From positions 11,944 through 75,943 of the forward strand of contig JACQZE010000027.1 in assembly GCA_016207885.1 (NCBI GenBank): DNA of 64,000 nucleotides, in the 5' to 3' direction. The stretch's first letter is position 1, and each line of letters begins with the position of its first letter. Shown one piece after another: positions 18,228-49,053 of the stretch. Below the pieces are notes generated by a model. That model was not told the origin of the DNA, did not search any database, and saw nothing but the letters and a program-made list of their open reading frames with translations. A program made the translations under genes and the position numbers. Source of the stretch: Nitrospirota bacterium. GTDB taxonomy: Bacteria; Nitrospirota; Thermodesulfovibrionia; UBA6902.

Positions 18228-18248
18228 AGGTGAAGCTGGGTATTGAGA

Positions 18249-18289: not shown

Positions 18290-18297
18290 CAGGATAC

Positions 18298-21203: not shown

Positions 21204-21256
21204 CAGATCATCAAGCCTGCTATTATACTGCGTCACGGCGTGGAAGGAGGTATAGC

Positions 21257-21319: not shown

Positions 21320-21366
21320 AATGAATGAGATATGAATGACCGGGATTTGTTGTCTTAAAATAACTT

Positions 21367-23874: not shown

Positions 23875-23919
23875 CTATGACAGTTTGACATCCAGAAGCA
23901 GCTGAATTTATACAGCATT

Positions 23920-24615
23920 ATGCTTGAAAATATATTTAAAATTGTCGCTATTCTAATTGTAATATCCCTGTTTTTTGGGATTGGTAAAGCCACTGCCGTT
24001 GAGACAACTATCTTCAAAGGACACGTTTTTGACGTGGAAGGCGACGTCGTTAAAGGGACGGAGATATTTATTTACAATTCTCCAGATACCAGGAGGCCTG
24101 CTGATTTCATATCAGGTCGCACGGAAGAGGATGGATATTTTAGTATTACGCTGCCGTTCGGGAAGTATTGGGCTGTGGCGAGATTGAGGAAAGACGACAA
24201 ATATGGCCCGCTTTTGATTGGAGATAAGCATTCAGGAGAACCTGTTGAGATAGAGGTTGAAGCCGGTAAAGAACTTGTTATGAATTTTACAGTAGTGGAT
24301 ATCAGGGACGCCGGGCGTCTATCAAAAAAGACGGGAGAAGATTATTTAAGGATTAGCGGGCGTATTATTGCTGCGGACGGAAAACCGGTCAAACAGGTTT
24401 ATGCTGTGGCAAACAGGACTAATCCGGCTCCTGATATACCCGACTTCTTGTCTGCATGGACGGATATGTATGGGCGATATACCCTTTATTTACCAAAAGG
24501 CAAATATTACATTGGATATGATGATGAATTCCCAATGCATAGTTATAGAGTTTACAAGGAATTGATTATGGAATCGGACAAGGATAATTTTGATATTGTA
24601 GTTGAAAGCAAGTGA
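23920..24615 (+). CDS. Secreted protein with two carboxypeptidase-regulatory-like domains (paralog of the 20337 gene)
   Basis: Signal/anchor MLENIFKIVAILIVISLFFGIGKATA. Units FKGHVFDVEGDVVKGTEIFIY…GYFSITLPFGKYWAVARL and ISGRIIAADGKPVKQVYAVANRT…GRYTLYLPKGKYYIGYD. Confidence 0.75.
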   Translation: MLENIFKIVAILIVISLFFGIGKATAVETTIFKGHVFDVEGDVVKGTEIFIYNSPDTRRPADFISGRTEEDGYFSITLPFGKYWAVARLRKDDKYGPLLIGDKHSGEPVEIEVEAGKELVMNFTVVDIRDAGRLSKKTGEDYLRISGRIIAADGKPVKQVYAVANRTNPAPDIPDFLSAWTDMYGRYTLYLPKGKYYIGYDDEFPMHSYRVYKELIMESDKDNFDIVVESK

Positions 24616-25202
24616 CGCACATGAAGAAAATATTATCTGGTCTTCTAGTAACAGTTTTGCTTTTCACCTCCGCCGCGGAAGCCTGTGTAGGCAAGATACT
24701 CAATATAGGCATCTTGAATTCGGTTGAAGAAAATCTTCTTGCCGAATTGATCTCGGTGATGGTAAATGAGAGAACAGGCACGACTGTTAATATCAAGGTT
24801 TACAAAGATTCAAAAGAGATTTACAACGCAGTGAAGAACGAGGAAATAAGTATAGTAATTGAAAACACTGAACGCGCATTAAAGATACTGGGTCTCTCTG
24901 GAAATGAGAGTGATGCAAAGGCATATGATGTTTCCAGGGATGAGTTCAGGAGCAGATTGAACCTCATATGGCTGAAACCATTTGGAATTGTGAACATGGA
25001 AGATGACGGAGGACAATATTATTATGCTCCTGTGATCACCGAAGATGTGCTGATCAATTTCCCGGCGCTTCCGAGGCTCATAAACAAGCTTTCGGATATT
25101 ACATTGGATAAGAATTATAGAGGTATGATTATCTCTATCAAGCGCGGAGAAAAAGCCAGGAAAGCGGCAAAAGAATTTTTGAAGAAAAAGAAACTGGTAT
25201 AA
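24612..25202 (+). CDS. Hypothetical secreted/periplasmic protein
   Basis: 196-aa ORF; the ATG at 24621 gives MKKILSGLLVTVLLFTSAAEAC, a signal peptide. There are no recognisable catalytic motifs. A lysine-rich C-terminus overlaps the downstream gene start. Confidence 0.5.
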   Translation: MTHMKKILSGLLVTVLLFTSAAEACVGKILNIGILNSVEENLLAELISVMVNERTGTTVNIKVYKDSKEIYNAVKNEEISIVIENTERALKILGLSGNESDAKAYDVSRDEFRSRLNLIWLKPFGIVNMEDDGGQYYYAPVITEDVLINFPALPRLINKLSDITLDKNYRGMIISIKRGEKARKAAKEFLKKKKLV

Positions 25203-25203
25203 C

Positions 25204-26121
25204 GTGCTGCGATTGCCGAAGAATAGAAATGGAAGGATTTACGGCTACCTTTCATCGAAAGAATTAACAATAATACTTTTTACGGTCATCTGTCCTATAT
25301 TGGCAGTTGCATCTTTTTCTGAATCAATATTTCCTTTTGTTTGGTATATGATCAAGGCGCTGCTTGCACTGATAATTCTAAACCTTTTTTTTTGCACGCT
25401 TCAAAGGATAAAAACACTTTCAAGACCTGTTCTGATCATTCACCTTGGTGTGATCATTGTTTTTATTGGAGGAGGGATCAGTTCTTTCGGTTATGTCGCT
25501 ACAGTCAATATATACGAAGGAAGCACCGTTGATAAGGTCTACAGGTGGGATGTGAAACAGGACGTTTCTCCGGGAATAGAAATTACCGTAACTAAGCTGC
25601 ACGAAGAATATTATCCGGCGCCTTTAAAAGTCGGAGTACTCAGAGGCGGCGATAAGTTCGGGCTTTTTACACTGACAATCGGCGAGAGCTTTAGAGCCGG
25701 GAATTACAGGATACAGGCAGACACCCTTGATGTAACATCGCAAAAACTGAGACTAAGCGTTTTTAACGCAGACAGCTACATTGGATATGCCGATACAACA
25801 GGTGTTATGGAATTGCCTGCCGATTTTCCTTTTGATTTTAAGCTCGTGGCATACATGAATCCTGTCATTAAAAAGACATGGGTGGACCTGGTTCTTTCAA
25901 GAAATGGTGAAGTAGTCGCTGAAGGCAGTACAGGAGTGAACAGTCCTTTTACATGGCAGGGGCTGAAATTCTTTCATACCGCGACAAATAGGGATCCGGA
26001 CAGAAATCCTTTTGTAGGCATTCAAATTACAAGAGATCCCGGGATCCCGATTGTTTATGCAGGATTCTGTATTGTATTTATCGGCGGGACAGCATATTTA
26101 TTAAGAAGGATATTTTTATGA
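25204..26121 (+). CDS. Short ResB/CcsB-like membrane protein (putative cytochrome c biogenesis accessory)
   Basis: GTG start. N-terminal TM helices include an in-membrane His (LIIHLGVIIVFIGGGISSFG), a roughly 200-aa soluble loop follows, and a C-terminal TM (IPIVYAGFCIVFIGGTAYLL) closes the protein. This topology resembles the short ResB-like proteins that accompany multiheme cytochromes in Desulfobacterota. Confidence 0.4.
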   Translation: MLRLPKNRNGRIYGYLSSKELTIILFTVICPILAVASFSESIFPFVWYMIKALLALIILNLFFCTLQRIKTLSRPVLIIHLGVIIVFIGGGISSFGYVATVNIYEGSTVDKVYRWDVKQDVSPGIEITVTKLHEEYYPAPLKVGVLRGGDKFGLFTLTIGESFRAGNYRIQADTLDVTSQKLRLSVFNADSYIGYADTTGVMELPADFPFDFKLVAYMNPVIKKTWVDLVLSRNGEVVAEGSTGVNSPFTWQGLKFFHTATNRDPDRNPFVGIQITRDPGIPIVYAGFCIVFIGGTAYLLRRIFL

Positions 26122-26139
26122 CAGAAAAGGGGAAAATAG

Positions 26140-27039
26140 ATGAGATTTATTAAACTGTTGCTCTTTATTAATCTGATTATTATTTTTGCCTCATGCAGGC
26201 AGTCACCTTCCGTTAAAAATGAAAAGGCCTACAGGATAGGCTACATGATCTGCAACAGTGAAGAAGAAACGCTTTACAGATTCAGGCCGCTGACAGCTTA
26301 TTTAGGTAAAAAACTCGGCGTAAAAACAGAGGCTGTGGCGATTGATACAACCAACTTTACAAAAGAGGTTGACAGCCTGGATTTTACTCATACGAATTCG
26401 CTTCTCTACATAATATTAAACCGCTATCACGGCGTCAGGGCATTGACAGCGGACAAACAGGGAGCGCTCGGATTTAGATCGAACGGGGCGATCGTCACAA
26501 GAAAGGACAGCGGGATAAATACGATAAAAGATTTGAAAGGGAAGAGCATGGCCTTCGGCCCCATGCTCGCGCCGACCGGATACTTACAGCAATACGACCT
26601 GATGATCCAAAGCGGTATAGATCCTGAAGATGACCTGTCGTTTTACACGATACCGGCAGGCACGTATAAACATGAAAAGGTGATCTACGGAGTTCTGTAC
26701 GGCATGTATGACGCCGGCGCGTTTCAGATGCTCGATTTTGAACGGATGGTTGAAGAGGGAAAGATCGACCGTGGTGATTTCAGGATAATCGCTGAGGGCG
26801 GATCGATCCCGTACTGCACCTTCGGCTCTGCGCAAAAGATCGACGAACCGCTCGCAAATGCCTTAAAGAAGGCATTGCTCGAATTAAAAAAGGAAGACAC
26901 GGTGGAAATAGACGGAGAGACTGTGAAGGTGCTTGCAAGGGCAAGGCTTGACGGTTTTCAGGATGTAAAAGATGAGGATTACGATGTTGTGAGAGACATC
27001 GCAAAGCGCACCAATATGCCGCCGTATCAAAAATATTAA
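26140..27039 (+). CDS. PhnD/SsuA-like periplasmic substrate-binding protein (phosphonate-binding family)
   Basis: Lipoprotein-like signal (…IIIFASC). The pattern YRIGYMI…ETLYRFRPLTAYLGKKLGVKTEAVAIDTTNFTKEVDSLDF…GAIVTRKDSGINTIKDLKGKSMAFGPMLAPTGYL…DAGAF is typical of the Phosphonate-bd (PhnD-like) fold. Confidence 0.65.
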   Translation: MRFIKLLLFINLIIIFASCRQSPSVKNEKAYRIGYMICNSEEETLYRFRPLTAYLGKKLGVKTEAVAIDTTNFTKEVDSLDFTHTNSLLYIILNRYHGVRALTADKQGALGFRSNGAIVTRKDSGINTIKDLKGKSMAFGPMLAPTGYLQQYDLMIQSGIDPEDDLSFYTIPAGTYKHEKVIYGVLYGMYDAGAFQMLDFERMVEEGKIDRGDFRIIAEGGSIPYCTFGSAQKIDEPLANALKKALLELKKEDTVEIDGETVKVLARARLDGFQDVKDEDYDVVRDIAKRTNMPPYQKY

Positions 27040-27109
27040 AATAGAAGCATGAGATCGTGACCTGTGTATGCCGTTTTTTACTATCGGCAATCGCAGGTGA
27101 AAAGACGAA

Positions 27110-27634
27110 ATGGATAAACTGGATAAAATCTCCATACTTTTTGCCCTTATATTTATCGCAGCTATTGCGGTTGTCAGCGCTGAATACCGCAGTGAATCAG
27201 GATTCCATATCAATCGTTCAGTTACTTACGCAGACAATACGGCGATCGCTGGCGGGATGGCCGCCGATCAGATCAAAACGATCAATAACCTGTTGGAGAG
27301 CGATAATTTTCTTAAGGCGGAAATGCTGCTTAATGAATTAATCAACAGGTATCCGTATGAAGGAGAGCTTCATATGCTGATGGGCGATATGATGATGAGG
27401 AAGCAGGATGCTGTCGGAGCGATCTTTAAGTACAGGGAAGCGGTTGACCTGAATCCCGATTATCTGGATAAGAAAGCGCCTCTCTTTCAGGGATATAAAA
27501 TTAAGGTTGCCGTTGAGGAGGCAAAGGTCAGGATTAATGAAACGCTCTCAAAACGGCATGATGATCAGGATGTGAAGGCGGCAAAAAAAAACATGTATTA
27601 TCTTTTAAAAAAACTGGCAGGATCCTGTGGGTAA
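27110..27634 (+). CDS. TPR-like repeat protein, secreted/anchored
   Basis: N-terminal hydrophobic segment (ISILFALIFIAAIAVVSA) followed by helical TPR-like repeats (FLKAEMLLNELINRYPYEGELHMLMGDMMMRKQDAVGAIFKYREAVDLNPDY). Confidence 0.55.
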   Translation: MDKLDKISILFALIFIAAIAVVSAEYRSESGFHINRSVTYADNTAIAGGMAADQIKTINNLLESDNFLKAEMLLNELINRYPYEGELHMLMGDMMMRKQDAVGAIFKYREAVDLNPDYLDKKAPLFQGYKIKVAVEEAKVRINETLSKRHDDQDVKAAKKNMYYLLKKLAGSCG

Positions 27635-28733
27635 GCTGAAATTCATATCAACAGGCATTTTACTCGGAGCCGGAGCGGTTCTGCTTTCTTATTTCGGCAA
27701 TCCGGCAAATACAGGCATATGCGTCTCCTGTTTTATGAGGAATATCGCAGGCGCCGTCGGAATGCACAACGATATAAGGATGCAGTATATCAGGCCGGAG
27801 ATCATAGCATTTGTTCTGGGCTCTTTTTTCGCGTCTCTTGCAGCGAGGGAATTCAAAGCGACTTCAGGAAGCTCGCCGCTTCTAAGGTTCTTTGTCGGCG
27901 TCTTTCTGATTTTCGGGTGTTCTGTATTCATCGGCTGTCCGATAAAACTGATCCTGCGCATATCTGCCGGAGATTTCACAGCTATTATCGGTGCAATTGG
28001 CCTTGCTGCAGGAGTCTGGACAGGTTTGCAATTTCTTGAAGGAGGTTTCAGGCTCGGAAGGCCTTCTGAGACACAGCGCGCGAACGGCTTTATCATTCCC
28101 GGCTTAATGCTGGCGCTTTTCATTCTCTTTATTGTTCAGGCGCCATTTATAAATTTCAGTACAAAGGGTTCTGCGGCACAACATGCGCCCGTGTGGGTAT
28201 CGTTGTTTTTCGGACTTCTTATCGGGGCCTTTGCTCAGATATCCGGCTTCTGCATTACCGGCGGCCTGGCAAGATTGTTTTTATGGGGGCCGAAAGAAGT
28301 CTACGGATGCCCGAAGTCAACAGGCCTTTTGATGGCAATAGGAGCATTCTTCCTGACCGCGCTGTCTGCAAATTTGCTCACTGGACAATTCTCTCCTGAT
28401 CTAACGACGCAGGCTGTAGTATCTGATACTTATTTGTGGGACGCGCTCGGTATGGGGCTTGTGGGATTTGGTTCTGTCCTGATTAAAGGATGCCCGTTCA
28501 GACAATTGATACTTTCAGGACAGGGCGATACCGATGCCGGAGTAACGGTAATGGGAATGCTTGTCGGCGGAGCGCTTGTGCAGAATTGGGGAATTGCTGC
28601 CGCCTCTACCGAGGTTCCGCTATGGGGAAAGATCGCTGTATTAGCCGGATTTGTTTTCCTGCTTATAATAGGCCTGCTCTATCGTGAAAGGGATAAAGGG
28701 CTTGCGCCTGAATACCAGACGGGATTGGATTGA
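27627..28733 (+). CDS. YeeE/YedE family sulfur-compound (thiosulfate-type) transporter, full-length two-repeat form
   Basis: 368-aa polytopic membrane protein with conserved cysteines in the hallmark positions (NTGICVSCF, IFGCSVFIGCPIKL, ISGFCITGG, IKGCPFRQL) of the Sulf_transp family. Confidence 0.75.
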   Translation: MGKLKFISTGILLGAGAVLLSYFGNPANTGICVSCFMRNIAGAVGMHNDIRMQYIRPEIIAFVLGSFFASLAAREFKATSGSSPLLRFFVGVFLIFGCSVFIGCPIKLILRISAGDFTAIIGAIGLAAGVWTGLQFLEGGFRLGRPSETQRANGFIIPGLMLALFILFIVQAPFINFSTKGSAAQHAPVWVSLFFGLLIGAFAQISGFCITGGLARLFLWGPKEVYGCPKSTGLLMAIGAFFLTALSANLLTGQFSPDLTTQAVVSDTYLWDALGMGLVGFGSVLIKGCPFRQLILSGQGDTDAGVTVMGMLVGGALVQNWGIAAASTEVPLWGKIAVLAGFVFLLIIGLLYRERDKGLAPEYQTGLD

Positions 28734-30664
28734 TCCAGGCGCTTAACAAAATCCTTAAAATGAAAAAACATAACAATAATGAATGCCGGATACACGGGAC
28801 ATCTCATAAGGGAGCTAACAGGACGCTCCTCTTCATGGTATTTGCATCTTTATTGCTTATTGTCTGGCATGTGTGGGTTTACGGCCCGACCGGCCACGCG
28901 GCAAGGCCTGAGTTATCACAAAAACCTTTTTTAGTGATCCTTGGGAATGAGATATGGGATATGCTCTTCAGCGGACACGGGATGCTTGCCGAGTTAAAAG
29001 ATATCTTCCCGTACTTTATCTTCGGGATACTTCTGGCCGGCCTCATACGCACATACAAGCTCACGATAAAACTTCGAAGCACTCTCAATCGTTACGGTTT
29101 CCTCAGTATTTTCTTGGCGTCGCTGATAGGGATATTAACACCTCTGTGCGCCTGCGGCACTCTTACGACTGCGGTCAGCCTGCTGTTTGCCGGGCTGCCG
29201 TTAGCTCCGGTTATGTCTCTTCTTGTGACTTCTCCGCTCATGAGCCCCTCAACTTACCTGCTCACGCTAAACGATCTGGGGCCGGAATGGACGGCCATCA
29301 GAACGATTGCCGCATTTCTGATGGGCATCTTTGCCGGGGTACTGACCCATCTCATCAGGAACAAAGGTTTTCATGCAGAGGCCATTTTCATTGAAGGCGC
29401 GATCCCAAGGGGTGATTTCCATGATGAGAATTATCCTGACGCCCGCCTGAGATGCAATTGCAAGGAGAAATTCGGAAACAGGGTAGCTGCCAGGACGAAT
29501 AATATGTTTATTGTCTTTCTTGCAAAGTCATCTGAGATGCTCTGGCTTGTCGGGAAATACGTTCTCATCGGAGTTGCAACAGGCAGCATCGTTCAGAGGT
29601 ATATGCCTTACGACTGGATCTATGAATTTTTCGGGCAGGAAGACAAGCTTAGCATAGTATGGATCACGCTCGGGTCGGTTCCGATATTTCTGCATCAGAT
29701 AAGCGCCTCAAGCATTCTATACCATATCAGGAGCACGCTTGACGGCACCATGAATGGAGGGGCGGGACTGGCTTTCCTTATCGGAGGGCCGGTAACGGCA
29801 ATTCCAACCATGGTAATGTTCTGGACGGTCTTTAAAAAGAGGGTGTTTTTCCTGTACCTGTTTGTCTGTGTTGCTGGAACAATTATGATCTCTTATGCTT
29901 TTCAATATTTCGTATTTACTCCATATGTTGACGCGGGCAATCCTGTTTTACGGGGCGTAAGTTCCATATCAGGAGGAAGTTCGGCAGTTATAACGAAAAT
30001 GCAAAATGGCAAACATGTGAGTATTGTCATGGATCCCGGCGGCAAAGGCATCATCGCTGCATTCAATAATTCAGCTGAAGGATACGGAGGCGTTGTCTTT
30101 GATTCCGGCGGCGAGAGATTCATGGAAGGTTCGGCAGATAAGTATGATAACCGGAGATATATAGAAAATATCGCGGCATGGCTGGAAGATAACAATGTAT
30201 CGGGAAACACGAGAAATATATTAATTTATAATACAGCCAGCGGATCAGGAACGGATAAGAATGCCTTCAGCCGAAGCGTAGTTGAGGGCCTTGAAAAAAA
30301 GGACGGATTTGAAATAAAGCTAACGGACAGAGAAGAGACTCCTCAAATAACCCGGGCATCGCTTGAAGAATACAGCCAGCTCTGGATAATTTTTGGAGAA
30401 GCAGATCCGGCATGTTGTTTCTCAGGCGCTGAGCTAAATACAATTACCGGATTTTCGCAAGATGGGAAAGGCCTGCTGATTGTTGACGGAAAACATCATG
30501 AAGGAACTGAAGGCCCGGCTGTCAACAGGCTGGCTTCCATTTTTGGCGTCGCCTTCTCCGGCTCTGTTGAAAATACGGAAGAGATCCGGGTAGCTAAGTC
30601 ATTCTATTTTTTCAACAGCATGTCTGAGATACTTGAAAGGTTTTACAAAAGGATGAGATACTGA
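28730..30664 (+). CDS. Permease of the DUF318/ArsP_1 family (TPLCxC motif) fused to a roughly 250-aa C-terminal soluble domain of unknown function
   Basis: The N-terminal half has about 8 TM helices and the ILTPLCACGT motif characteristic of ArsP_1/UPF0718 permeases. The C-terminal half (GGSSAVITKMQNGKHVSIVMDPGG…) has no recognisable motif. The start codon is uncertain: TTG at 28730 overlaps the upstream stop, and ATG at 28760 gives MKKHNNNE. Confidence 0.6.
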   Translation: MIQALNKILKMKKHNNNECRIHGTSHKGANRTLLFMVFASLLLIVWHVWVYGPTGHAARPELSQKPFLVILGNEIWDMLFSGHGMLAELKDIFPYFIFGILLAGLIRTYKLTIKLRSTLNRYGFLSIFLASLIGILTPLCACGTLTTAVSLLFAGLPLAPVMSLLVTSPLMSPSTYLLTLNDLGPEWTAIRTIAAFLMGIFAGVLTHLIRNKGFHAEAIFIEGAIPRGDFHDENYPDARLRCNCKEKFGNRVAARTNNMFIVFLAKSSEMLWLVGKYVLIGVATGSIVQRYMPYDWIYEFFGQEDKLSIVWITLGSVPIFLHQISASSILYHIRSTLDGTMNGGAGLAFLIGGPVTAIPTMVMFWTVFKKRVFFLYLFVCVAGTIMISYAFQYFVFTPYVDAGNPVLRGVSSISGGSSAVITKMQNGKHVSIVMDPGGKGIIAAFNNSAEGYGGVVFDSGGERFMEGSADKYDNRRYIENIAAWLEDNNVSGNTRNILIYNTASGSGTDKNAFSRSVVEGLEKKDGFEIKLTDREETPQITRASLEEYSQLWIIFGEADPACCFSGAELNTITGFSQDGKGLLIVDGKHHEGTEGPAVNRLASIFGVAFSGSVENTEEIRVAKSFYFFNSMSEILERFYKRMRY

Positions 30665-30734
30665 TTCAGGTGTAGCTTTTGCAGAGAGGGCTTATATTTT
30701 TGAATTGCTGTAAATAACATTTCCGGAGGGAATT

Positions 30735-31061
30735 ATGAAGAACAAGAGTGTTGTGCTGGACATCGCGAAGCTTAAAAAATTCAGTGAAGAAAAGAGGCAC
30801 CATGAAACAATATGGTCGGACAAACATTCAAAGATAAACCTCATATGCATGAAACCCGGGCAGGAAATTATAACCCATACGCATCATGGAAACCATATCT
30901 GGGTAGTTATGGAGGGCAAGGGGGAATTTATGACAGCAGGCGAGACACAGGCCATTGATATCGGCAAGATAGTGATCGTACCCGCTCTTGTAGACCACGG
31001 GATTCGCAATGCTTCAGATGAAGATCTTGTTATTGCGTCCCTGACGGCTCAGGGTGACTGA
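30735..31061 (+). CDS. Cupin domain protein
   Basis: 108 aa with …GQEIITHTHHGNHIWVVMEGKGEFMTAGE…IVIVPALVDHGIRN, the two-His cupin motifs. The stop overlaps the next start as ATGA. Confidence 0.75.
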   Translation: MKNKSVVLDIAKLKKFSEEKRHHETIWSDKHSKINLICMKPGQEIITHTHHGNHIWVVMEGKGEFMTAGETQAIDIGKIVIVPALVDHGIRNASDEDLVIASLTAQGD

Positions 31062-31386
31062 TAAGGCGGAATGGAAAATGAAAATATTCAGGAATGCTGA
31101 CGTAATGTGGCGGGAAGAGGACGAATACAGGGCGCAGGCTTATGAAAGGCTTGAAAAAGGAGAAGATGCCGAAAGGATCGGCACATCCGTTTTATTCCAC
31201 AATGGAATGATGCTGTCGCTTAACCTGCTTGGGACAGAGATATGGAAAAGGTGCGAGGGCGGGACGATCGATGAAATAGTATCTGAACTTACCGGGATAT
31301 TTGATGTTGAGCCTGAAGTCCTGAAAAAGGATGCGGAGGCATTTATCTCCGAGCTGAAAGAAAAGGGGTATCTCAGATATGAATGA
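31054..31386 (+). CDS. PqqD-family protein (RiPP recognition element-like chaperone)
   Basis: 110 aa; …VLFHNGMMLSLNLLGTEIWKRCEGGTIDEIVSELTGIFDVEPEVLKKDAEAFISELKEKGYL fits the PqqD/RRE pattern. It is translationally coupled to the downstream radical SAM gene. Confidence 0.7.
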   Translation: MTDKAEWKMKIFRNADVMWREEDEYRAQAYERLEKGEDAERIGTSVLFHNGMMLSLNLLGTEIWKRCEGGTIDEIVSELTGIFDVEPEVLKKDAEAFISELKEKGYLRYE

Positions 31387-32383
31387 CTTTCTTCCGGGCT
31401 CGCCGCTGACGATCAACTGGGCTGTTACGAACAAATGCAATTTTAAATGCAGCCACTGCTACAGCCGGAATGACCCCTCCGGTGAACTTGATATGAACCT
31501 GCTTTTTCAATGCGTTGAGAGAGTCGCAAAGGCAGGCGTACTTTCGATCAACTTTGGAGGCGGGGAGCCTCTGTTAAGGAGCGGCCTGATGGAAATAGCA
31601 CGGTTTGCTTCACAAAACGGCCTGCGGGTTTCCATGAACAGCAACGGTTTTTTAATAGACAACCGGAAGGCGGTTGACCTGAAAGTCAGCGGATTTTCAA
31701 AAGTCGGGATAAGCATTGACAGCCACCTGTCTGAGATCCACGATGAGTTCAGAGGCGCAATTGGCAGTCATGAAAGGGCGGTGAGGGCGCTTGACTGCCT
31801 GAATAAAGCAGGGATTGAGACATCCATATCAACCGTGATCTGCAGGATCAATCACAAGGATATTGACGCATTGGTTGAGTTTGCGGCCCGGAACAAAGTG
31901 AAACATCTCAATTTTCACAACTTCAAATGCTCAGGACTCGGATATTCAAATAAGGACAAGCTGGATCTATGCGGTGATGAATGGAAGGAATTTTATATCA
32001 AGGCGCTTGACGCAAAAAATAAAACTAAAGACCTGGATATATCGCTTGATGATCCTGTGATAGCTCTGCTGGGGGCTAATAAAAATGGATCGATGGTCAG
32101 GGGAAGCATCTGCGGGAAGCTTTCATTGAATATTAAATCAAACGGGGATATAACCCCATGCGGATTTATCCCGATCGTGATAGGCAATATCACAAAAGAC
32201 GATTTAAAAGACATATGGAAAAACTCTCCGGCGCTGATCAGGATGAGAAACAAAACACCAAAAGGCAAGTGCGTAACATGCGGCCATTATGCGGATTGTC
32301 TCGGCGGCTGTACAGCGCGCGCCATCGCGCTGACAGGCGACATGAACAACCCTGATCCGCATTGCTGGTATCATGAATCCTGA
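31379..32383 (+). CDS. Radical SAM enzyme with C-terminal SPASM domain
   Basis: The motif CNFKCSHCYS (Cx3Cx2C) lies at residues about 20-30, followed by GGGEPLL. The C-terminal auxiliary-cluster motifs are CGKLSLNIKSNGDITPCG…CVTCGHYADCLGGCTARA, i.e. a SPASM domain. Confidence 0.85.
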   Translation: MNDFLPGSPLTINWAVTNKCNFKCSHCYSRNDPSGELDMNLLFQCVERVAKAGVLSINFGGGEPLLRSGLMEIARFASQNGLRVSMNSNGFLIDNRKAVDLKVSGFSKVGISIDSHLSEIHDEFRGAIGSHERAVRALDCLNKAGIETSISTVICRINHKDIDALVEFAARNKVKHLNFHNFKCSGLGYSNKDKLDLCGDEWKEFYIKALDAKNKTKDLDISLDDPVIALLGANKNGSMVRGSICGKLSLNIKSNGDITPCGFIPIVIGNITKDDLKDIWKNSPALIRMRNKTPKGKCVTCGHYADCLGGCTARAIALTGDMNNPDPHCWYHES

Positions 32384-33239
32384 TAACTTGATAGATCCGT
32401 TCATCGTTTACTGGGACCTGAGGCCGTCGGGATACAGTGAAGAGACGATCTTAAATGTTTGCGATGAACTGATAAAGAGCAAAATATTTGTCCTTAATCT
32501 AAGAGATATTTCACATCCTCTAAGCGCCGCCTCGATCGGTATTCTCGAAAAACTGGGTGAAACGAATATTAAGATCAGGCTGACTGTGAAGCACGATGCC
32601 GTTGAACGGCCGATGATGGAGATATTACAGAAACGCAGGGTCTCTATTTTCACAGAGACGGATTCCATAGTAAAACTCCGATCCACTGATGCTGCCGTTA
32701 CGGGCAGTGTTTCATTTTTATTAAACAAAAATAACTTCCATGATATTCCTGACGTTATTTGCTTCTGCTTAAAGAGCCAGGTAACTGAACTTGAATTTCC
32801 GATACAGAGGGCTGAAGACAAAGATATATTTTATCCTGACTTCGAAAATATTGGCCGGCTTCATGATGAACTGAAATCAATGTCATTTGAAAAGCTGAAG
32901 GTAACGGTTCATGATCCTTTTCTCTGGAAGGCCTTTCATGACAAAGAACAGCATGAAGGAACGGGCTGTAACGGCGCAAACACGATGATCTATATCTCGC
33001 CGGATCTTGACGTTACTCCATGCCCTTTACTGCCTTTAAATATGGGGCATCTTGGCACTGATACTTTAAATGAAATCTTTTCTTCAGCCAAAAGACGGCA
33101 AATAAGAAAAACGCTTCTTGCTCCGCCTTATGAATGCCGGAAATGCGCCATGGTTGATAATTGCATAGGCGGCTGCAGGGGAAGGGCCTATGTTTTAGAT
33201 GATACCTTTGATAAGAAAGACCCGGCATGCCGGTTTTAG
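32373..33239 (+). CDS. SPASM-domain protein lacking the radical SAM Cx3Cx2C motif (degenerate radical-SAM-like partner)
   Basis: 288 aa with no Cx3Cx2C. The C-terminus (GCNGANTMIYISPDLDVTPCPLLP…YECRKCAMVDNCIGGCRGRA) is SPASM/twitch-like. The gene overlaps the upstream radical SAM gene by 11 nt. Confidence 0.6.
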   Translation: MNPDNLIDPFIVYWDLRPSGYSEETILNVCDELIKSKIFVLNLRDISHPLSAASIGILEKLGETNIKIRLTVKHDAVERPMMEILQKRRVSIFTETDSIVKLRSTDAAVTGSVSFLLNKNNFHDIPDVICFCLKSQVTELEFPIQRAEDKDIFYPDFENIGRLHDELKSMSFEKLKVTVHDPFLWKAFHDKEQHEGTGCNGANTMIYISPDLDVTPCPLLPLNMGHLGTDTLNEIFSSAKRRQIRKTLLAPPYECRKCAMVDNCIGGCRGRAYVLDDTFDKKDPACRF

Positions 33240-33330
33240 TGGTTTTGCATTCTGTTAAGGCTGCGGCTTTTGCAAAATACCATTTTCTGTTAGCCAAATT
33301 CATCATAAATATGTACAATAATGTACTATT

Positions 33331-33885
33331 GTGAACAGGAGATATGAAATGAAAAATTTGAAGTCAATGGTCTTTACAATTTTAGTTATTGTTTTTTTCG
33401 GGCTGACCGTTTTTTGCGGTCATTCAAATGCCGAAGATATGATGCCGTGGAAGCTTGACAGGGTGATAGGTTCACAGGCAACTGATTTTAAAATAAAGGA
33501 CCTGAAGGGCAATGATGTCACGCTCTCGTCTTTTAAAGGCAAGCCTGTACTGCTGAACATCTGGGCCACATGGTGCCCTTACTGCAGGAAAGAGAGGGCT
33601 GAGCTGAATGAACTGTATAAAGTGTATAACGCTAAAGGGCTGGTAATAATCTCGGTAGCTAATGACAGAGATATTGAAAAGGTAAAGCAGTATATCAAAA
33701 GCAATCCTGCCAGCTACATGGTTCTTTCAGATGAGGACGGCATTGTAACAGATGCCTACAGTGTTTACGGCTTGCCGACCAACTTCCTTATTGACCGCAA
33801 TGGTGTAATAAAAAACAAGTTCACGGGTTTTCGAAGCTGGACAGACCCTGAGTCAATAAAGATCCTGGACGACTTTATCAAGTAG
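33331..33885 (+). CDS. TlpA/ResA-family thiol:disulfide oxidoreductase (thioredoxin fold), membrane-anchored
   Basis: The WATWCPYC active site sits in the typical TlpA context (KGKPVLLNIWATWCPYCRKE), behind an N-terminal anchor (MVFTILVIVFFGLTVFCG). The more likely start is the ATG at 33349 (MKNLK…), which has an AGGAGA ribosome-binding site. Confidence 0.8.
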   Translation: MNRRYEMKNLKSMVFTILVIVFFGLTVFCGHSNAEDMMPWKLDRVIGSQATDFKIKDLKGNDVTLSSFKGKPVLLNIWATWCPYCRKERAELNELYKVYNAKGLVIISVANDRDIEKVKQYIKSNPASYMVLSDEDGIVTDAYSVYGLPTNFLIDRNGVIKNKFTGFRSWTDPESIKILDDFIK

Positions 33886-33989: not shown

Positions 33990-34382
33990 ATGAATCCCGA
34001 AGACGTTAAATATCACAAGGAGCACACCTGGGTAAAAGTTGAGGACAAGAAGGCTACGGTCGGCATCACTGACTATGCCCAGGAATCCCTTGGAGACATC
34101 GTTTATATTGATGCTCCTGAACTTGACGGGGAAGTAGATGCGGGGACAGAGCTCACTCAGATCGAGTCTACCAAGGCCACTTCTTCCGTGATAAGCCCCG
34201 TGACAGGTACCATTGTAAAGATAAACGAGGACCTTTCCGACTCTCCTGAGATCATCAATGAGGATCCCTACGGCAAGGGCTGGATAGCTGTCCTTGATAT
34301 TGATGACGAGGGCCAGCTTAACGGCCTTATGGATCTGGAGGCTTATGAGAAATATCTTGAGGAAGAGGTGAAGCTTAAATAA
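33990..34382 (+). CDS. gcvH: Glycine cleavage system H protein (lipoyl carrier)
   Basis: 130 aa; the ESTKA lipoyl-lysine motif lies in a typical GcvH context (GTELTQIESTKATSSVISPVTG). Confidence 0.9.
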   Translation: MNPEDVKYHKEHTWVKVEDKKATVGITDYAQESLGDIVYIDAPELDGEVDAGTELTQIESTKATSSVISPVTGTIVKINEDLSDSPEIINEDPYGKGWIAVLDIDDEGQLNGLMDLEAYEKYLEEEVKLK

Positions 34383-35767
34383 TGAAGATAACGATTCTTG
34401 GCGCGGGCCCCGGCGGGTATGTAGCAGCATTAAGGGCGGCACAACTGGGAGCTGATGTAACGGTTATTGAAGACGGAGAGGTAGGCGGCACATGCCTTAA
34501 CTGGGGATGTATTCCTACAAAGACACTTATCGCGTCTGCCGAAGTTCTTCACAAGGCGAGAAACGCAAAGGATTACGGGCTGGATTTTGAAGGCTCCATA
34601 TCTCCCAATATAGCGAAGATAGTTGAGCGAAAGAACAAGGTGGTTGTCACACAGGTCAAGGGCATACGCGGGCTCTTCAAGTCGTGGGGGGTCAACCTGA
34701 TAGAAGGCAGGGGCATTATTGCCGGGCCGAAAAAAATAAAGGTCACGCTGAAGGACGGTTCTGTTTCAGATATTGATACTGACAAAATAATTATCGCCAC
34801 AGGTTCAAGGCCTGCGCAGATCCCGGTATTTCCTTTTGACGGGAAGCGGATACTCTCAAGCGACCACGCGATAAATCCGGATTCCATTCCCAAAAGCCTC
34901 CTCATTGTAGGGGCGGGCGTCATAGGGTGCGAGTTTGCATTTATATACAAGGAATTTGGTTCTGAAGTGACTATGGTCGAGATGATGCCTAATGCTGTTT
35001 CAACAGAGGATGAGGAGATTTCTCAGATACTTGAGAGAGAGCTTAAGAAGAACAAGATAAAGCTTCTGACCAATACTGGCGTTAATAAGGTTGACGTAAG
35101 AGATGACGGCATAACCGCAACACTCACCGATGGAAAGACGATTGAGGCAGAGAAGGTGCTCGTATCAATCGGAAGGGCTGTCAACAGTGCGAATATCGGG
35201 CTTGAGGGTTTAAGTATAGCGCAGGGTAAACGCGGAGAGATAATAGTTGACAGCAGCCTGCAGACCAATATTGAAGGCATCTACGCCATCGGTGATGTCA
35301 CAGGTGGGATAATGCTTGCGCACCTCGCATCAAAAGAAGGTATTGTCGCCGCTGAGAATGCCATGGGCGGCAGCAGTAAAGTTAACTATGACGTTATTCC
35401 TGCCGCGATATTTACAAGCCCGGAGATAGGATCAGTAGGCCTCAGGGAGAAGCAGGCTGTTGCAGCCGGGATCAAATACAAGGTAGGAAGGTTCCAGTTC
35501 AGGGCGCTCGGCAAGGCGCATGCGATGGGAGAGATCTCAGGCATGTTTAAGATGATAACTGAAGATGCGACAGACAGGATAATCGGCGCGCACATTATCG
35601 GCGCTCATGCTTCTGACCTGATACATGAGGTTGCTCTTGCAATGGAGAAGGGCCTGACCGCAAAAGATATTGCAGATACGATCCACGCCCATCCGACACT
35701 TGCCGAGGGTATTATGGAGTGTTCTGAGGATGTCCATGACAGGGCGATACATTCACCGAAGAAGTAG
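34382..35767 (+). CDS. lpdA: Dihydrolipoyl dehydrogenase (E3 / L-protein)
   Basis: GAGPGGY FAD-binding motif, redox-active disulfide GGTCLNWGCIPTK, NAD-binding VGAGVIGCEFA, and a C-terminal HAHPTLAEG dimerisation motif. The start overlaps the gcvH stop as TAATG. Confidence 0.9.
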   Translation: MKITILGAGPGGYVAALRAAQLGADVTVIEDGEVGGTCLNWGCIPTKTLIASAEVLHKARNAKDYGLDFEGSISPNIAKIVERKNKVVVTQVKGIRGLFKSWGVNLIEGRGIIAGPKKIKVTLKDGSVSDIDTDKIIIATGSRPAQIPVFPFDGKRILSSDHAINPDSIPKSLLIVGAGVIGCEFAFIYKEFGSEVTMVEMMPNAVSTEDEEISQILERELKKNKIKLLTNTGVNKVDVRDDGITATLTDGKTIEAEKVLVSIGRAVNSANIGLEGLSIAQGKRGEIIVDSSLQTNIEGIYAIGDVTGGIMLAHLASKEGIVAAENAMGGSSKVNYDVIPAAIFTSPEIGSVGLREKQAVAAGIKYKVGRFQFRALGKAHAMGEISGMFKMITEDATDRIIGAHIIGAHASDLIHEVALAMEKGLTAKDIADTIHAHPTLAEGIMECSEDVHDRAIHSPKK

Positions 35768-35896
35768 ACAGGCTTTAAGTTTTAGCGGATAAAATACATC
35801 ATGTCTTGCCGGTTAACATATTGAAATTATTGCTATTAATCCAGGTTATGGTCAGGCTTTCTGCCTGGCCATATAATTTTTATCAGGTAAATATAA

Positions 35897-36724
35897 ATGA
35901 AGACCAATGAAGTAAAAATAGGAAATGTATCTATAGGAAAAGATAATCCACTTGCCTTTATCGCAGGCCCTTGCGTGATCGAGTCTGAAGCATCAACTCT
36001 TAAGGCTGCCGTCAGGCTTGCTGAAATCTCTCAGCGGCTGAATATACCGATCATTTTTAAGAGTTCATATGACAAGGCGAACAGAACATCTGTCACTTCT
36101 TTTAGGGGGCCTGGTATTGATGCCGGGCTAACTATTTTAGATAAGGCGAGAAAAGAGACAGGGCTTTCTATTATCTCTGATGTCCATTCAGTTGAAGAGG
36201 CAAAGAAGGCTGCTGAAGTGCTGGACTGCCTTCAGATACCCGCATTTTTATGCAGGCAGACCGACCTTATAATTGAAGCCTCTAAGACCGGCAAGCCTGT
36301 CAATGTAAAGAAGGGACAATTCCTTGCGCCGGGTGACGTAAAGAATATTATTAATAAAATGATTTCAACCGGAAATGAAAATATTCTGATCACAGAGCGC
36401 GGAGTTTCATTCGGCTACAATAATCTTGTTGTTGACATGCGCTCTATCCCGATAATTCAGGGCTTTGGTTATCCTGTGGTTTATGATGCCACTCACAGCG
36501 TGCAGCTTCCCGGCGGAATGGGGAGTTCATCAGGAGGCGAGAGGCAGTTCATATCGCCGCTTACGAGAGCCGCTGTTGCCGCAGGGTGTGATGCAGTATT
36601 CTTAGAGGTGCATGAATGCCCGGAAAAAGCTCTCTGTGACGGCCCCAATATGGTAGCGCTGGATTCGCTGCCGGAATTACTGCGGAAGCTGGTTCAGATA
36701 AATGAACTTATAAGGAAGATATAA
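35897..36724 (+). CDS. kdsA: 3-deoxy-8-phosphooctulonate (KDO-8-P) synthase
   Basis: 275 aa; the segment …FIAGPCVIESEASTLKAAVRLAEISQRLNIPIIFKSSYDKANRTS… and the overall length match KdsA. Confidence 0.85.
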   Translation: MKTNEVKIGNVSIGKDNPLAFIAGPCVIESEASTLKAAVRLAEISQRLNIPIIFKSSYDKANRTSVTSFRGPGIDAGLTILDKARKETGLSIISDVHSVEEAKKAAEVLDCLQIPAFLCRQTDLIIEASKTGKPVNVKKGQFLAPGDVKNIINKMISTGNENILITERGVSFGYNNLVVDMRSIPIIQGFGYPVVYDATHSVQLPGGMGSSSGGERQFISPLTRAAVAAGCDAVFLEVHECPEKALCDGPNMVALDSLPELLRKLVQINELIRKI

Positions 36725-36732
36725 AAGAAGTT

Positions 36733-37701
36733 ATGGACAAGTATATTGAACAGGCAAAAAAGGTTTTAAGGATCGAGGCGGATGCTATAGAGTCTCTGAT
36801 CGAAAGGGTCAATGAGACGATCATAGAGGCTATTGATATTCTGTATCAATGCAAAGGGAAGGTTGTGGTCACCGGGATGGGAAAGTCCGGGCTTATCGGC
36901 AAGAAGATAGCCGCGACACTTTCATCAACAGGAACCTCAGCATTCTATCTTAATCCTGCGGAAGGAAGCCACGGCGATATCGGCATGGTGACAAAAGATG
37001 ATGTTGTCATTGCAATATCGAACAGCGGCGAAACTGACGAGATAATTAATATCCTTCCGGTGCTTAAGAGGCTTGATGTAAAGATAATCGCCATGACAGG
37101 GAACCTTTCATCTTCACTTGCCAAAAAGTCTGATGTCGTGCTTGATATATCAGTTAAGGAAGAGGCATGTCCTATGGGGCTTGCTCCGACCGCCTCGACC
37201 ACAGCAACGCTTGCGATGGGCGATGTCCTTGCCGTAACATTATTAAGCAAAAAGGGCTTTACCGAAGAGGATTTCGCTTTCTGCCATCCCGGAGGCAATA
37301 TAGGCAGGAGGCTGCTTACAAATGTCGAAGACCTGATGCACAAAGGAAGCGATGTGCCTGTTGTCGGAGTTGATACAGACATGAAGGTTGCCATACTTGA
37401 GATATCATCCAAGCGGCTCGGCATAACAACGGTAGCTGACGCGGAAGGAATGTTCAAAGGCGTGATCTCTGACGGAGACCTCAGGAGAGGCCTTGAAAAA
37501 TGGGGCGAGGGCTTTATCAATCTTAAGGCAGGTGATGTCATGTCAGCAAATCCCAAGACTATAATGCGCGACGCTCTTGCGACAAAGGCTGTTTCCATAA
37601 TGGAAAAGAACTCAATCACCTCTCTTGTCGTTCTTGATCAGTCAGGGAAGGCCGAGGGCATAATTCATCTGCATGACCTGCTTAAGGCAGGGATAGTATG
37701 A
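36733..37701 (+). CDS. kdsD: Arabinose-5-phosphate isomerase (SIS plus tandem CBS domains)
   Basis: SIS-domain motifs (VVVTGMGKSGLIGKKIAATLSSTG; AISNSGETDEI) followed by two CBS domains, matching the KpsF/GutQ family. Confidence 0.85.
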   Translation: MDKYIEQAKKVLRIEADAIESLIERVNETIIEAIDILYQCKGKVVVTGMGKSGLIGKKIAATLSSTGTSAFYLNPAEGSHGDIGMVTKDDVVIAISNSGETDEIINILPVLKRLDVKIIAMTGNLSSSLAKKSDVVLDISVKEEACPMGLAPTASTTATLAMGDVLAVTLLSKKGFTEEDFAFCHPGGNIGRRLLTNVEDLMHKGSDVPVVGVDTDMKVAILEISSKRLGITTVADAEGMFKGVISDGDLRRGLEKWGEGFINLKAGDVMSANPKTIMRDALATKAVSIMEKNSITSLVVLDQSGKAEGIIHLHDLLKAGIV

Positions 37702-38264
37702 AAAAAAGCATTCAGCATTCAGCATTCAGCATTCAGAAGAAAAAGAATATAAAAGCACAAGCAAAAAAGATAAGGCTTCTTATACTGGATGTTGACGGCG
37801 TTATGACTGACGGCAGCATAATGCTTGATAATAACGGGAACGAATACAAGAGATTTCACGTCAGGGACGGCCATGGGATAAAGATGCTCGAGAAGGCCGG
37901 CATAAAGACAGCCATCATTACAGGAAGAAGGTCAAAGGTTGTGGACAGAAGGGCGCAAGAGCTCGGCATCACTGATGTTCATCAGGGTGTGTTTAAGAAG
38001 TCAGAGGTCTATGAAGGGCTTCTCAGTAAATACAGGCTCAAAGATGAGAATGTCGCATTTATGGGTGATGATACAGTTGATATCGAACTTTTTAAAAGGG
38101 CAGGCATGACCGCAGCCCCGGCAGATGCTGAGGATGAGGTACGAAAGATTGCCGGCTTCATATCAGGCAGAAACGGCGGAAGAGGGGCTGTAAGAGAATT
38201 TATCAACTTAATATTGAAGTCTTCCGGCCTCTGGGAAAATGTCTCAGGCGAGTCCATTGATTAA
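37698..38264 (+). CDS. kdsC: KDO-8-phosphate phosphatase (HAD superfamily, subfamily IIIA)
   Basis: LLILDVDGVMTDG…FHVRDGHGIKML…AFMGDDTVD motifs. The start overlaps the kdsD stop as ATGA. The N-terminal extension contains a heptanucleotide tandem repeat. Confidence 0.8.
   Translation: MKKSIQHSAFSIQKKKNIKAQAKKIRLLILDVDGVMTDGSIMLDNNGNEYKRFHVRDGHGIKMLEKAGIKTAIITGRRSKVVDRRAQELGITDVHQGVFKKSEVYEGLLSKYRLKDENVAFMGDDTVDIELFKRAGMTAAPADAEDEVRKIAGFISGRNGGRGAVREFINLILKSSGLWENVSGESID
37708..37735 (+). repeat. Heptanucleotide tandem repeat (GCATTCA x4) inside the 5' end of kdsC
   Basis: gcattca gcattca gcattca gcattca at 37708-37735 encodes SIQHSAFSIQ. The unit length is not a multiple of 3. Confidence 0.8.
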
Positions 38265-38805
38265 CATACCCACTCTCATCACATTAAGCAGAATCTTCGT
38301 GATCCCGCTCTTTGTCTTTATTGCGGCCAAAGACCCTTTTACCGGAGCCCTGATATTTTCACTTGCAGCTATTACGGATTTTTTCGACGGATATATTGCA
38401 CGAAGGTCAAAACAGGTAACCAAGCTCGGGATACTGCTTGACCCGATAGCGGATAAACTTCTTGTTATATCAGCGCTCATCGTTCTTGTGGACATGGCGC
38501 TTGTGCCCGCATGGATAGCCATAGTCATCGTTGCCAGGGAATTTCTCGTGACCGGGCTGAGGGTGGTTGCATTGACAAAAGACCTGGTGATACCTGCCGA
38601 GACCGGAGGAAAGATAAAGGTCGGCGCACAGATCGCTTCGATCATAATACTTCTGCTTGACAGGTCGTTGATCAGCTATGATTTTTTCGGGCCGATCGAG
38701 TTTCTCGTTGAATACAGCGTCGGTATCACGCTCCTTTGGGCAGCAATGATAATAGGCCTGGTCTCCGGAGTACAATATTTTCAGGCATTCTGGAAGAAGC
38801 TGTAA
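38239..38805 (+). CDS. pgsA: CDP-diacylglycerol--glycerol-3-phosphate 3-phosphatidyltransferase
   Basis: CDP-alcohol phosphatidyltransferase motif (AAITDFFDGYIARR…LGILLDPIADKLLV) in a 188-aa membrane protein. Confidence 0.8.
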   Translation: MSQASPLINIPTLITLSRIFVIPLFVFIAAKDPFTGALIFSLAAITDFFDGYIARRSKQVTKLGILLDPIADKLLVISALIVLVDMALVPAWIAIVIVAREFLVTGLRVVALTKDLVIPAETGGKIKVGAQIASIIILLLDRSLISYDFFGPIEFLVEYSVGITLLWAAMIIGLVSGVQYFQAFWKKL

Positions 38806-49016: not shown

Positions 49017-49053
49017 TTTAAAAATATAATTATTTATTTCAGGAGGATTGATC

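Follow-up and report, generated by a model that had tools for sequence, protein, structure and literature searches.

In the mycofactocin (MftA/MftB/MftC) and pyrroloquinoline quinone (PQQ; PqqA/PqqD/PqqE) systems, a short (~20 to 30 residues), fully conserved precursor with a reactive residue at or near its C terminus is accompanied by a stand-alone PqqD-type chaperone and a radical S-adenosylmethionine (SAM)/SPASM enzyme, and chaperone and enzyme are tightly coupled translationally. Conservation over the full length is unusual for antibiotic-type peptides that are made ribosomally and modified after translation (RiPPs) and typical of PqqA and MftA. A PqqD-family protein, a radical SAM/SPASM enzyme, and a SPASM-only protein together define GeoRSP, a catalogued NCBIfam/TIGRFAM system without an assigned function or substrate. 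Here, we describe a GeoRSP locus in a 64,000-nucleotide (nt) stretch of DNA from a Nitrospirota bacterium (GenBank assembly GCA_016207885.1, contig JACQZE010000027.1, positions 11,944 to 75,943 of the forward strand), referred to below as the window; all coordinates are window positions, and the features of the locus lie on the plus strand. An earlier note, made from the sequence alone, had delimited a seven-gene cluster at 27627–33885 and treated it as an orphan with no visible precursor. We found that these genes belong to a larger conserved array that includes a gene for a small, nearly invariant, never annotated peptide ending in V-H-P-C (the HPC peptide), which is probably the GeoRSP substrate.

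The enzyme trio of the window is the GeoRSP system. The PqqD-family peptide chaperone, a RiPP recognition element (RRE) protein (31054–31386; PF05402), scored 139.7 bits against TIGR04302, above the cutoff of 100, and the radical SAM/SPASM enzyme (31379–32383) scored 568.9 bits against TIGR04303, above the cutoff of 400. For the SPASM-only, pseudo–radical SAM partner (32373–33239), TIGR04304 was the top match and covered residues 6 to 287 of 288, at 211.3 bits versus a cutoff of 300; because the score is below the cutoff, we read this protein as an apparently divergent Nitrospirota version of the TIGR04304 family. The three proteins have the same order and the same overlaps as in other GeoRSP systems, and an identical enzyme in a Nitrospirae metagenome-assembled genome carries the public name “GeoRSP system radical SAM/SPASM protein.” Rather than being an orphan, the cluster is thus a catalogued system by NCBIfam models. 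The CNFKCSHC motif and residues C245, C261, C298, C301, C307, C311, and C329 are invariant in the radical SAM/SPASM enzyme; the SPASM-only protein keeps the seven SPASM cysteines across 82 homologues and has no CX3CX2C motif, features that, like its synteny, agree with a GeoRSP partner role.

GeoRSP homologues are numerous: 824 were found at E ≤ 1e-60 in one search, and 112 stretches were found in one-genome-per-species GTDB representatives. We compared 80 loci from such representatives, with flanks of ±10 kb, by tblastn and clustering of open reading frames (ORFs). Counts out of 81 refer to these loci plus the window, and 88 loci are the 80 plus eight from Desulfuromonadales (L201 to L208), which were reached via a divergent homologue and eight look-ups. 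The three GeoRSP genes are adjacent, co-directional, and identically ordered in 80 of 80 loci, PqqD is present in 80 of 81, and the radical SAM enzyme is 60 to 86% identical across Nitrospirota, Geobacterales, and Desulfuromonadales. A literature search found no paper on GeoRSP or its three accessions. The family name and the three models were already known; the peptide gene and an extended array of about ten components are new here.

The radical SAM enzyme scored below the curated cutoffs of the other families considered: AhbD (187 bits versus 500), NirJ2 (186 versus 500), NirJ (152 versus 515), AhbC (138 versus 650), MftC (155.6 versus 265 for TIGR03962), PqqE (116.8 versus 381 for TIGR02109), anSME (91.6 versus 349 for TIGR03942), and the sactipeptide and ranthipeptide models. 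PqqB, PqqC, and PqqF families were absent from the Pfam/NCBIfam matches of the array ORFs. Among solved structures, those closest to the enzyme are PqqE (the best match), SkfB, and SuiB, all peptide-modifying SPASM enzymes. Of the assignments suggested previously, a peptide-maturation type cluster with an RRE and a radical SAM/SPASM enzyme, tied to YedE-type sulfur/selenium transport, is supported, while anSME-type protein maturation and an AhbD/NirJ-type enzyme both fail the curated cutoffs.

The statement that no precursor lies inside or beside the seven genes holds for the window: the gap at 30665–30734 fully contains no plus-strand short ORF (sORF), and the sole ORF of the gap at 33240–33330 encodes an unconserved hydrophobic 35-mer (33227–33334), which is not a plausible precursor. 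Three candidate substrates had been named elsewhere in the window, and comparative genomics strongly supports two of them, the sORFs at 18165 and 21257, but not a 79-residue ORF considered at the end of this section. Copy 1 (MKKIKYIAPKIVGSAVVHPC; 18165–18227) is a 20-residue ORF with AAAGGAGG located 7 nt upstream of its ATG. Copy 2 (VKKIKYVPPGIVGSAAVHPC; 21257–21319) has a GTG start and GGAAGGAGG upstream and fits the family pattern. Both have strong Shine-Dalgarno sequences, both are located directly upstream of a NosD-like gene, and both lie 10 to 13 kb upstream of the GeoRSP genes within the same conserved array.

The 18- to 20-residue peptides follow the consensus MKKxxYxxP[KR][IV][VL][GA][SN]AxV[HYQ]PC-stop, in short form MKKxxYxxP[KR][IV]VGSAxVHPC. 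Within ±10 kb, 23 of 80 GeoRSP loci have a peptide gene, which in most cases occupies the syntenic site upstream of the NosD-like gene; for Nitrospirota-type loci, as for the window, this site falls just past the 10-kb flank. At least 120 metagenome contigs match a degenerate DNA pattern for the peptide, and among the matches listed, all 126 are 18- to 21-residue ORFs that start with M[KR]K behind a Shine-Dalgarno sequence. The pattern is matched twice in the window, where zero matches are expected (100 shuffles), and not at all among 2.9 million viral contigs. Variation at codon position 3 is close to saturation (1.60 bits, versus 0.53 bits at positions 1 and 2), and the DNA flanking the peptide genes is unconserved except for the ribosome-binding site. 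One contig (L191) repeats the gene order of the window from the peptide gene to ArsP, and in another (L122), the cluster spans the peptide gene through the SPASM-only gene.

The tightest linkage was observed in Desulfuromonadales, where the peptide gene is located between the radical SAM and SPASM-only genes in seven of eight loci, including those of the isolates Desulfuromonas versatilis, D. carbonis, and Geoalkalibacter ferrihydriticus. A metagenome contig (L108) has the same arrangement. The in-operon sequences read MK[KA]Y[ML]KPRVVGSSNVHPC and variants, and in most of these loci, a hairpin with a T-run follows on the 3′ side. The neighborhood comparison proposed in the earlier note, which envisaged an adjacent precursor of unrelated sequence, therefore did reveal an adjacent precursor in orthologous clusters, but one of the same family as the HPC candidates. 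Overall, these results firmly establish that the peptide gene is real, under purifying selection, and linked to the array.

No NCBIfam model matches the HPC peptide, the ten peptide sequences tested are absent from a 15-billion-protein collection, and literature searches that included sequence strings found no mention of it. Selenocysteine recoding at the peptide stop codon was considered and rejected, as TGA, TAA, and TAG are all used and nothing is conserved after the stop. A sigma-54 promoter upstream of the peptide genes was likewise rejected, with a match at only 1 of 138.

The N-terminal part of the peptide suggests how it may be recognized. Discrete PqqD-type RREs bind the leader motif [Y/W]xxPx[L/V/I/F/A] (PMC13381572), and the HPC peptide contains an invariant, compatible Y-x-x-P-[KR]-[IV] element; in 27 of 27 genome-locus matches, Tyr was found three residues N-terminal of Pro, although this position was not scored. 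This motif is that of leader recognition by B1, the PqqD-type RRE protein of lasso peptides (PMC13381572), and GeoRSP PqqD has weak, below-cutoff matches to lasso-type PqqD models. GeoRSP has neither a lasso cyclase nor a B2 protease; it is the recognition mode that is comparable and not the chemistry. We consider it probable that the HPC peptide is the GeoRSP substrate. It carries the RRE motif, is placed within the operon in Desulfuromonadales, and has no competing substrate candidate in the 88 loci, and the listed hairpins behind it mostly begin 15 to 35 nt past the stop codon.

We therefore propose, with moderate confidence, that GeoRSP is a cytoplasmic peptide-maturation unit that acts on the HPC peptide and whose product serves an envelope module. 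The unit would consist of the PqqD-type recognition protein, the radical SAM/SPASM enzyme, and the catalytically degenerate SPASM-only partner. PqqD would bind the N-terminal Y-x-x-P-[KR]-[IV] and thereby present the C-terminal V-H-P-Cys-COOH to the radical SAM active site. Because the peptide invariantly ends in V-H-P-Cys, with Cys always the last residue, the free C-terminal Cys is the predicted reactive site; in mycofactocin, the terminal Tyr of MftA is its analogue. The modification that follows would center on Cys and could be the insertion of sulfur or selenium, an oxidative decarboxylation of the terminal Cys in the manner of MftC, or a cross-link of the thioether or His-Cys type. The SPASM-only protein may contribute auxiliary Fe-S clusters or offer the peptide a second binding site. 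The product would work together with the co-conserved envelope module, or be passed to it, as a small thiol (or selenol) cofactor, carrier, or metallophore in sulfur/selenium or thiophilic-metal trafficking; this module consists of YedE, PhnD-like, TPR-like, OpuAC-like, NosD-like, and CarboxypepD_reg proteins and lineage-specific metal-type permeases.

Compared to mycofactocin and PQQ, GeoRSP differs in the end of the peptide (V-H-P-C versus G-V-Y in mycofactocin and E…Y in PQQ; the Val-Tyr end that goes with MftC is thus missing), lacks MftD/E/F and PqqB/C/F homologues in the array, and adds the pseudo–radical SAM partner and the conserved envelope/transport module. With respect to the three-protein GeoRSP definition, the HPC peptide and the wider array go beyond what the models describe.

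Several observations weigh against the proposed scheme. PqqD-peptide binding, modification by the radical SAM enzyme, its chemistry, and the physiological role are steps that we infer, and the sulfur/selenium/metal role is read from family names only. In the pattern that yielded the metagenome set, many codon positions 1 and 2 are fixed in advance; however, the searches specified neither the ribosome-binding site nor the Met-Lys-Lys start, nor Tyr in the genome-locus matches. Geothermobacter has no peptide gene in the gap between the radical SAM and SPASM-only genes, and an HPC gene within ±10 kb is missing from over half of the Geobacter-type loci whose upstream flank is fully covered. HPC genes also precede unrelated genes, those for multiheme cytochromes, ankyrin and Sel1 proteins, and PMT-type glycosyltransferases, and some 12- to 15-kb contigs hold an HPC gene without any cluster gene. 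The whole peptide is conserved, leaving no variable core, and no conserved peptidase was found, the C-terminal domain of the ArsP fusion protein being without a conserved catalytic triad.

The surroundings of the peptide genes have features of their own. Copy 1 is directly followed by a terminator-like hairpin with a T-run (18249–18292; a 13-bp stem, then ATTTTTTCAG). Among 138 unique peptide genes, 75% have a hairpin with z < −2 within 70 nt downstream, and 47 (34%) have a hairpin plus a T-run. CarboxypepD_reg is the commonest neighbor family (35 of 123); DUF4198 (13 of 123) and beta-helix proteins are also frequent, and homologues of the 288-residue CarboxypepD_reg-type protein of the window flank the peptide gene in 46 of the 120 metagenome contigs listed.

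One alternative is that the HPC sORFs encode regulatory peptides of the leader or arrest type at the head of a regulon's operons, with their translation to the His-Pro-Cys-stop end controlling the hairpin or terminator downstream and with GeoRSP acting on something else. The sORF indeed precedes many different genes and sub-operons, a strong hairpin follows most copies, the full-length conservation resembles that of arrest peptides, and in Desulfuromonadales the sORF lies in the middle of the operon, where a terminator precedes the SPASM-only and desulfurase genes. However, most of the listed hairpins with a T-run begin 15 to 35 nt past the stop codon, presumably beyond the terminating ribosome; no alternative antiterminator pairing is evident, and the DNA past the stop is unconserved. 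In the classical RiPP layout, a leaky terminator comes after the precursor gene; YxxPx[IV] is specifically bound by PqqD-type RREs, and a leader peptide would leave a PqqD and radical SAM system without a substrate in all 88 loci. We consider a leader function unlikely and favor the view that the precursor is encoded by a stand-alone gene that is multicopy, highly expressed, and equipped with a (leaky) terminator of its own.

Three contigs with peptide genes in other settings deserve mention. HPC genes lie directly 5′ of large multiheme c-type cytochromes in L099 (~1663–3630 and a 1523-residue ORF) and in L160 (4256–5734), and L099 contains three peptide copies within 10.6 kb. In L188 (11178–12461), an HPC gene is located ~70 nt upstream of a 387-residue radical SAM/SPASM gene whose product shares only 28% identity with the GeoRSP enzyme. 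The N terminus of this protein looks AhbC/NirJ1-like, and its position was treated as coincidental; the pairing could be a coincidence or a second enzyme class that uses the peptide.

About ten components are common to Nitrospirota, Geobacterales, and Desulfuromonadales among the 88 related loci: the GeoRSP trio, YedE, PhnD-like, TPR-like, OpuAC-like, NosD-like beta-helix, and CarboxypepD_reg proteins, and the gene for the 18- to 20-residue peptide. The gene set is kept, although the order differs between Nitrospirota and Geobacterales. The NosD-like, CarboxypepD_reg, OpuAC-like, ResB-like, PhnD-like, and TPR-like proteins, YedE, the ArsP fusion, and the cupin are each found in 53 to 64 of 81 loci. 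The seven-gene boundary drawn previously was therefore wrong: conserved partners extend upstream over 18165–27634, the TlpA gene at the other end is unconserved, and the ArsP fusion and cupin genes are replaceable.

In the window, the upstream part of the array begins behind peptide copy 1 with a secreted 680-residue protein (18298–20340) that has CarboxypepD_reg/DUF4198 and NosD-like beta-helix domains by Pfam and an N-terminal signal-like segment, followed by the 288-residue CarboxypepD_reg-type beta-sandwich protein (20337–21203; Pfam). Behind copy 2 come a secreted NosD-like right-handed beta-helix protein of 835 residues (21367–23874; Beta_helix, 115 bits; NosD, 84.5 bits), which is conserved in 63 of 81 loci and corresponds to two split genes in Desulfuromonadales, and a 231-residue CarboxypepD_reg-type protein with a signal peptide (23920–24615; Pfam; 64 loci). 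The next genes encode an OpuAC-like periplasmic protein (24612–25202; Pfam; 64 loci, with a Desulfuromonadales homologue), a short, accessory ResB-like membrane protein (25204–26121; 61 loci) that is present in Nitrospirota and Geobacterales only and absent from the Desulfuromonadales clusters, and a PhnD-like periplasmic oxyanion-binding lipoprotein (26140–27039; Phosphonate-bd, 154 bits). The latter is conserved in all three lineages and has weaker matches to selenate-binding and TtrS-type models. A membrane-anchored TPR-like protein ending in LAGSCG (27110–27634) is always encoded directly upstream of YedE.

The YedE-family transporter (27627–28733) is assigned by its TIGR04112 score (387.8 bits; cutoff, 200) as a putative selenium or thiosulfate-type sulfur transporter and is conserved in all three lineages. 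It is followed by an ArsP_1/UPF0718 permease fused to a ~250-residue C-terminal GATase1-like (GIFT/S51-peptidase-like) domain (28730–30664; PF03773, 120 bits) and by a small cupin (30735–31061; Cupin_2), which is found in 63 loci and is missing wherever ArsP is missing. Some Geobacter loci (L004, L005, L023 to L025, L027, L032, L033, L041, L073, and L077; positions 7202–9683 in L023) have in place of these two genes a NicO/DsbD_2-like permease (314 residues), a TPR protein (184 residues), and a short NosD-like protein (329 residues). The ArsP fusion and the cupin are thus an accessory module. The permease part has weak matches to Cu/Zn-efflux models, well under the cutoff. The C-terminal domain was rejected as an S51-type protease: its fold is GATase1-, GIFT-, S51-, or ThuA-like, but the Ser-His-Glu catalytic residues of S51 peptidases (peptidase E/cyanophycinase) are not conserved, and no Ser, His, or Cys is invariant in 30 homologues.

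All seven ORFs noted previously at 27627–33885 are borne out by the ORF list of the window and by Pfam/NCBIfam matches, and all are co-directional. The translational coupling claimed for them was confirmed in part. The overlaps at 31379 and 32373 are real, and the 8-nt overlap of the PqqD and radical SAM genes is also present in distant relatives. The other two depend on the choice of start codon: the public annotation begins the permease (28730) at Met11, giving 634 residues, and the TIGR04302 alignment begins at residue 10 of the PqqD ORF (31054).

Desulfuromonadales keep the OpuAC-like, NosD-like (split), PhnD-like, and TPR-like proteins, YedE, PqqD, the radical SAM enzyme, and the SPASM-only protein. 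The CarboxypepD_reg protein was found in the five loci that reach upstream past a Fer4_5 gene (L202 and L205 to L208), which additionally encode EB_dh-domain, HEAT-repeat, and Fer4_5 membrane proteins. In eight of eight loci, an Aminotran_5 gene is located 3′ of the SPASM-only gene and is followed by a gene for a ~92-residue protein; a sigma-54 response regulator is encoded upstream in seven of eight. These added genes lie at about 500–5300 and 12100–13700 of the loci. The D. versatilis Aminotran_5 protein belongs to the TIGR01977 cysteine-desulfurase family (459 bits), with the selenocysteine lyase SclA as the second-best match, and the small protein of the same locus resembles a lipoprotein.

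Two of the envelope proteins have conserved terminal cysteines. The C terminus of the TPR-like protein reads [LI]AG[GS]C[EGS] in 56 of 68 family members, and the OpuAC-like protein has AC-V-G-[KR] right after the signal peptide in 63 of 64. Together with the terminal Cys of the peptide, these residues hint at a possible envelope thiol relay. We tentatively suggest that the product of GeoRSP serves sulfur/selenium or thiophilic-metal handling across the envelope. The suggestion draws on YedE and the PhnD-like oxyanion-binding protein, on the SclA-like desulfurase, on ArsP_1 and NicO/DsbD_2-like permeases that replace one another, and on domains of the NosD-like and DUF4198 types.

The same proteins raise another explanation, that GeoRSP matures one of the co-conserved secreted proteins (NosD-like, CarboxypepD_reg, OpuAC-like, or TPR-like), as anSME or QhpD do, while the HPC peptide is an unrelated small secreted or structural product. 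Several secreted proteins with terminal Cys motifs are conserved beside the enzymes, and the radical SAM enzyme is distantly similar to anSME, but at a score far short of the family cutoff (91.6 versus 349 bits). Judging from sequence, signal peptides are present on the candidate targets, whereas the enzymes would be cytoplasmic. The usual partner of a stand-alone PqqD-type RRE is a short leader, and the peptide gene lies within the operon in 8 loci. Maturation of an envelope protein is thus improbable, a little more so than a leader function. Least probable is that the enzyme pair acts on a tetrapyrrole or other small molecule, as AhbD and NirJ do, in a specialized heme or cofactor pathway with ResB-like, DsbD_2-like, and TlpA proteins: AhbD (187 bits) and NirJ2 (186 bits) are the best NCBIfam matches after the enzyme’s own family, and some clusters contain or adjoin genes for ResB-like, DsbD_2-like, TPR (CcmH-like), and TlpA-type proteins, but both scores are far under the cutoff of 500, the ResB-like, DsbD_2-like, and TlpA proteins are lineage-specific or absent, 80 of 81 loci have a dedicated PqqD chaperone, and the sequence-nearest solved structures are peptide modifiers.

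The maturation of the HPC peptide by GeoRSP can also be set beside other systems. Sactipeptide and ranthipeptide maturases and the thio(seleno)oxazole maturase SbtM perform SPASM radical SAM chemistry centered on the sulfur of Cys or on selenocysteine. The GeoRSP enzyme has weak matches to the StsB, PapB, SCIFF, and SbtM models, far below cutoff, and selenium-associated neighbors (YedE and the SclA-like desulfurase) are a further likeness to this group. The HPC peptide differs in having a single Cys, which is always last, no Cys-rich core, and a conserved rather than variable sequence. A small ribosomal peptide accompanied by a permease of exporter-like type, by periplasmic binding proteins, and by beta-helix proteins resembling NosD recalls methanobactin-type chalkophore loci, other peptide metallophore loci, and Nos accessory sets, and the Fer4_5-domain membrane protein of the Desulfuromonadales clusters, a Pfam family that we take to be linked to NapH/NosR, adds to the likeness to Nos (NosD/NosR). 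The GeoRSP array has no MbnB/MbnC, TonB receptor, NosF, or NosL; NosY and NosZ were not specifically searched. No ABC_tran (NosF-type) match was found in the array ORFs or the called Desulfuromonadales genes. NosD proper was rejected (TIGR04247, 22 bits versus a cutoff of 300, on the D. versatilis NosD-like protein only), and the NosD-like proteins of the window have Pfam Beta_helix/NosD repeat matches only and no NCBIfam match. The resemblance to methanobactin and Nos loci is context only.

GeoRSP is routinely annotated by genome pipelines, yet its function is left blank, and the peptide makes it experimentally approachable. In iron-, sulfur-, and metal-cycling organisms, the array brings together radical SAM peptide chemistry, a YedE-type sulfur/selenium transporter, and secreted proteins of the beta-helix and binding types. 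GeoRSP, the HPC peptide, and the envelope module may form an undescribed, widely distributed pathway that converts a ribosomal 18- to 20-residue peptide to a thiol/selenol cofactor or metallophore, a possibility we regard as less likely than not. Possible products include His-Cys cross-linked, thio- or seleno-histidine-type, and C-terminally decarboxylated (at the terminal Cys) forms. If so, Geobacterales, Desulfuromonadales, and Thermodesulfovibrionia-type Nitrospirota would use the product for periplasmic sulfur/selenium or thiophilic-metal trafficking, PQQ and mycofactocin would be joined by GeoRSP as a third cofactor-like system derived from a peptide, and a cofactor or metallophore of this origin would add something new to the physiology of anaerobes. 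If not, the cluster boundaries are still corrected, and TlpA and the Cys-rich ORF are removed from consideration.

The TlpA/ResA-like thiol:disulfide oxidoreductase gene (33331–33885), which had been counted as the seventh member of the cluster, adjoins the system but is not a conserved part of it. The 80 related loci yielded no homologue at E ≤ 1e-5, and TlpA was ruled out as a component. The gene is wedged between the SPASM-only gene and gcvH; in an 81%-identical relative (L002), the SPASM-only gene leads toward gcvH without a TlpA match, which suggests a lineage-specific insertion. GcvH and Lpd are not conserved with the system either. The genes at 33990–40174 are housekeeping genes and mark the right-hand boundary of the system; PgsA-like, PlsY, QueC, and a HAD hydrolase were identified by Pfam, and GcvH, dihydrolipoyl dehydrogenase, KdsA, and KdsD were read from translations.

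The third candidate substrate, a 79-residue ORF with 10 cysteines (48777–49016), has no Pfam match and sits between a PAS/GAF histidine kinase and sigma-54 activator pair (42997–48479) and an RpoD-like sigma factor (49048–50562). Having no family match, housekeeping/regulatory surroundings, and no link to the system, it was rejected. No Rfam family reached threshold anywhere in the window. On the left-hand side, three giant plus-strand ORFs (1664, 1761, and 2472 residues; 84–18118) lie directly 5′ of peptide copy 1. The 2472-residue protein contains many tandem “WTDNT..ETGF.IERC.GAGCSDF” modules (fibronectin-III-like, each with a Cys pair) and beta-propeller-like repeats and is probably a cell-surface protein.

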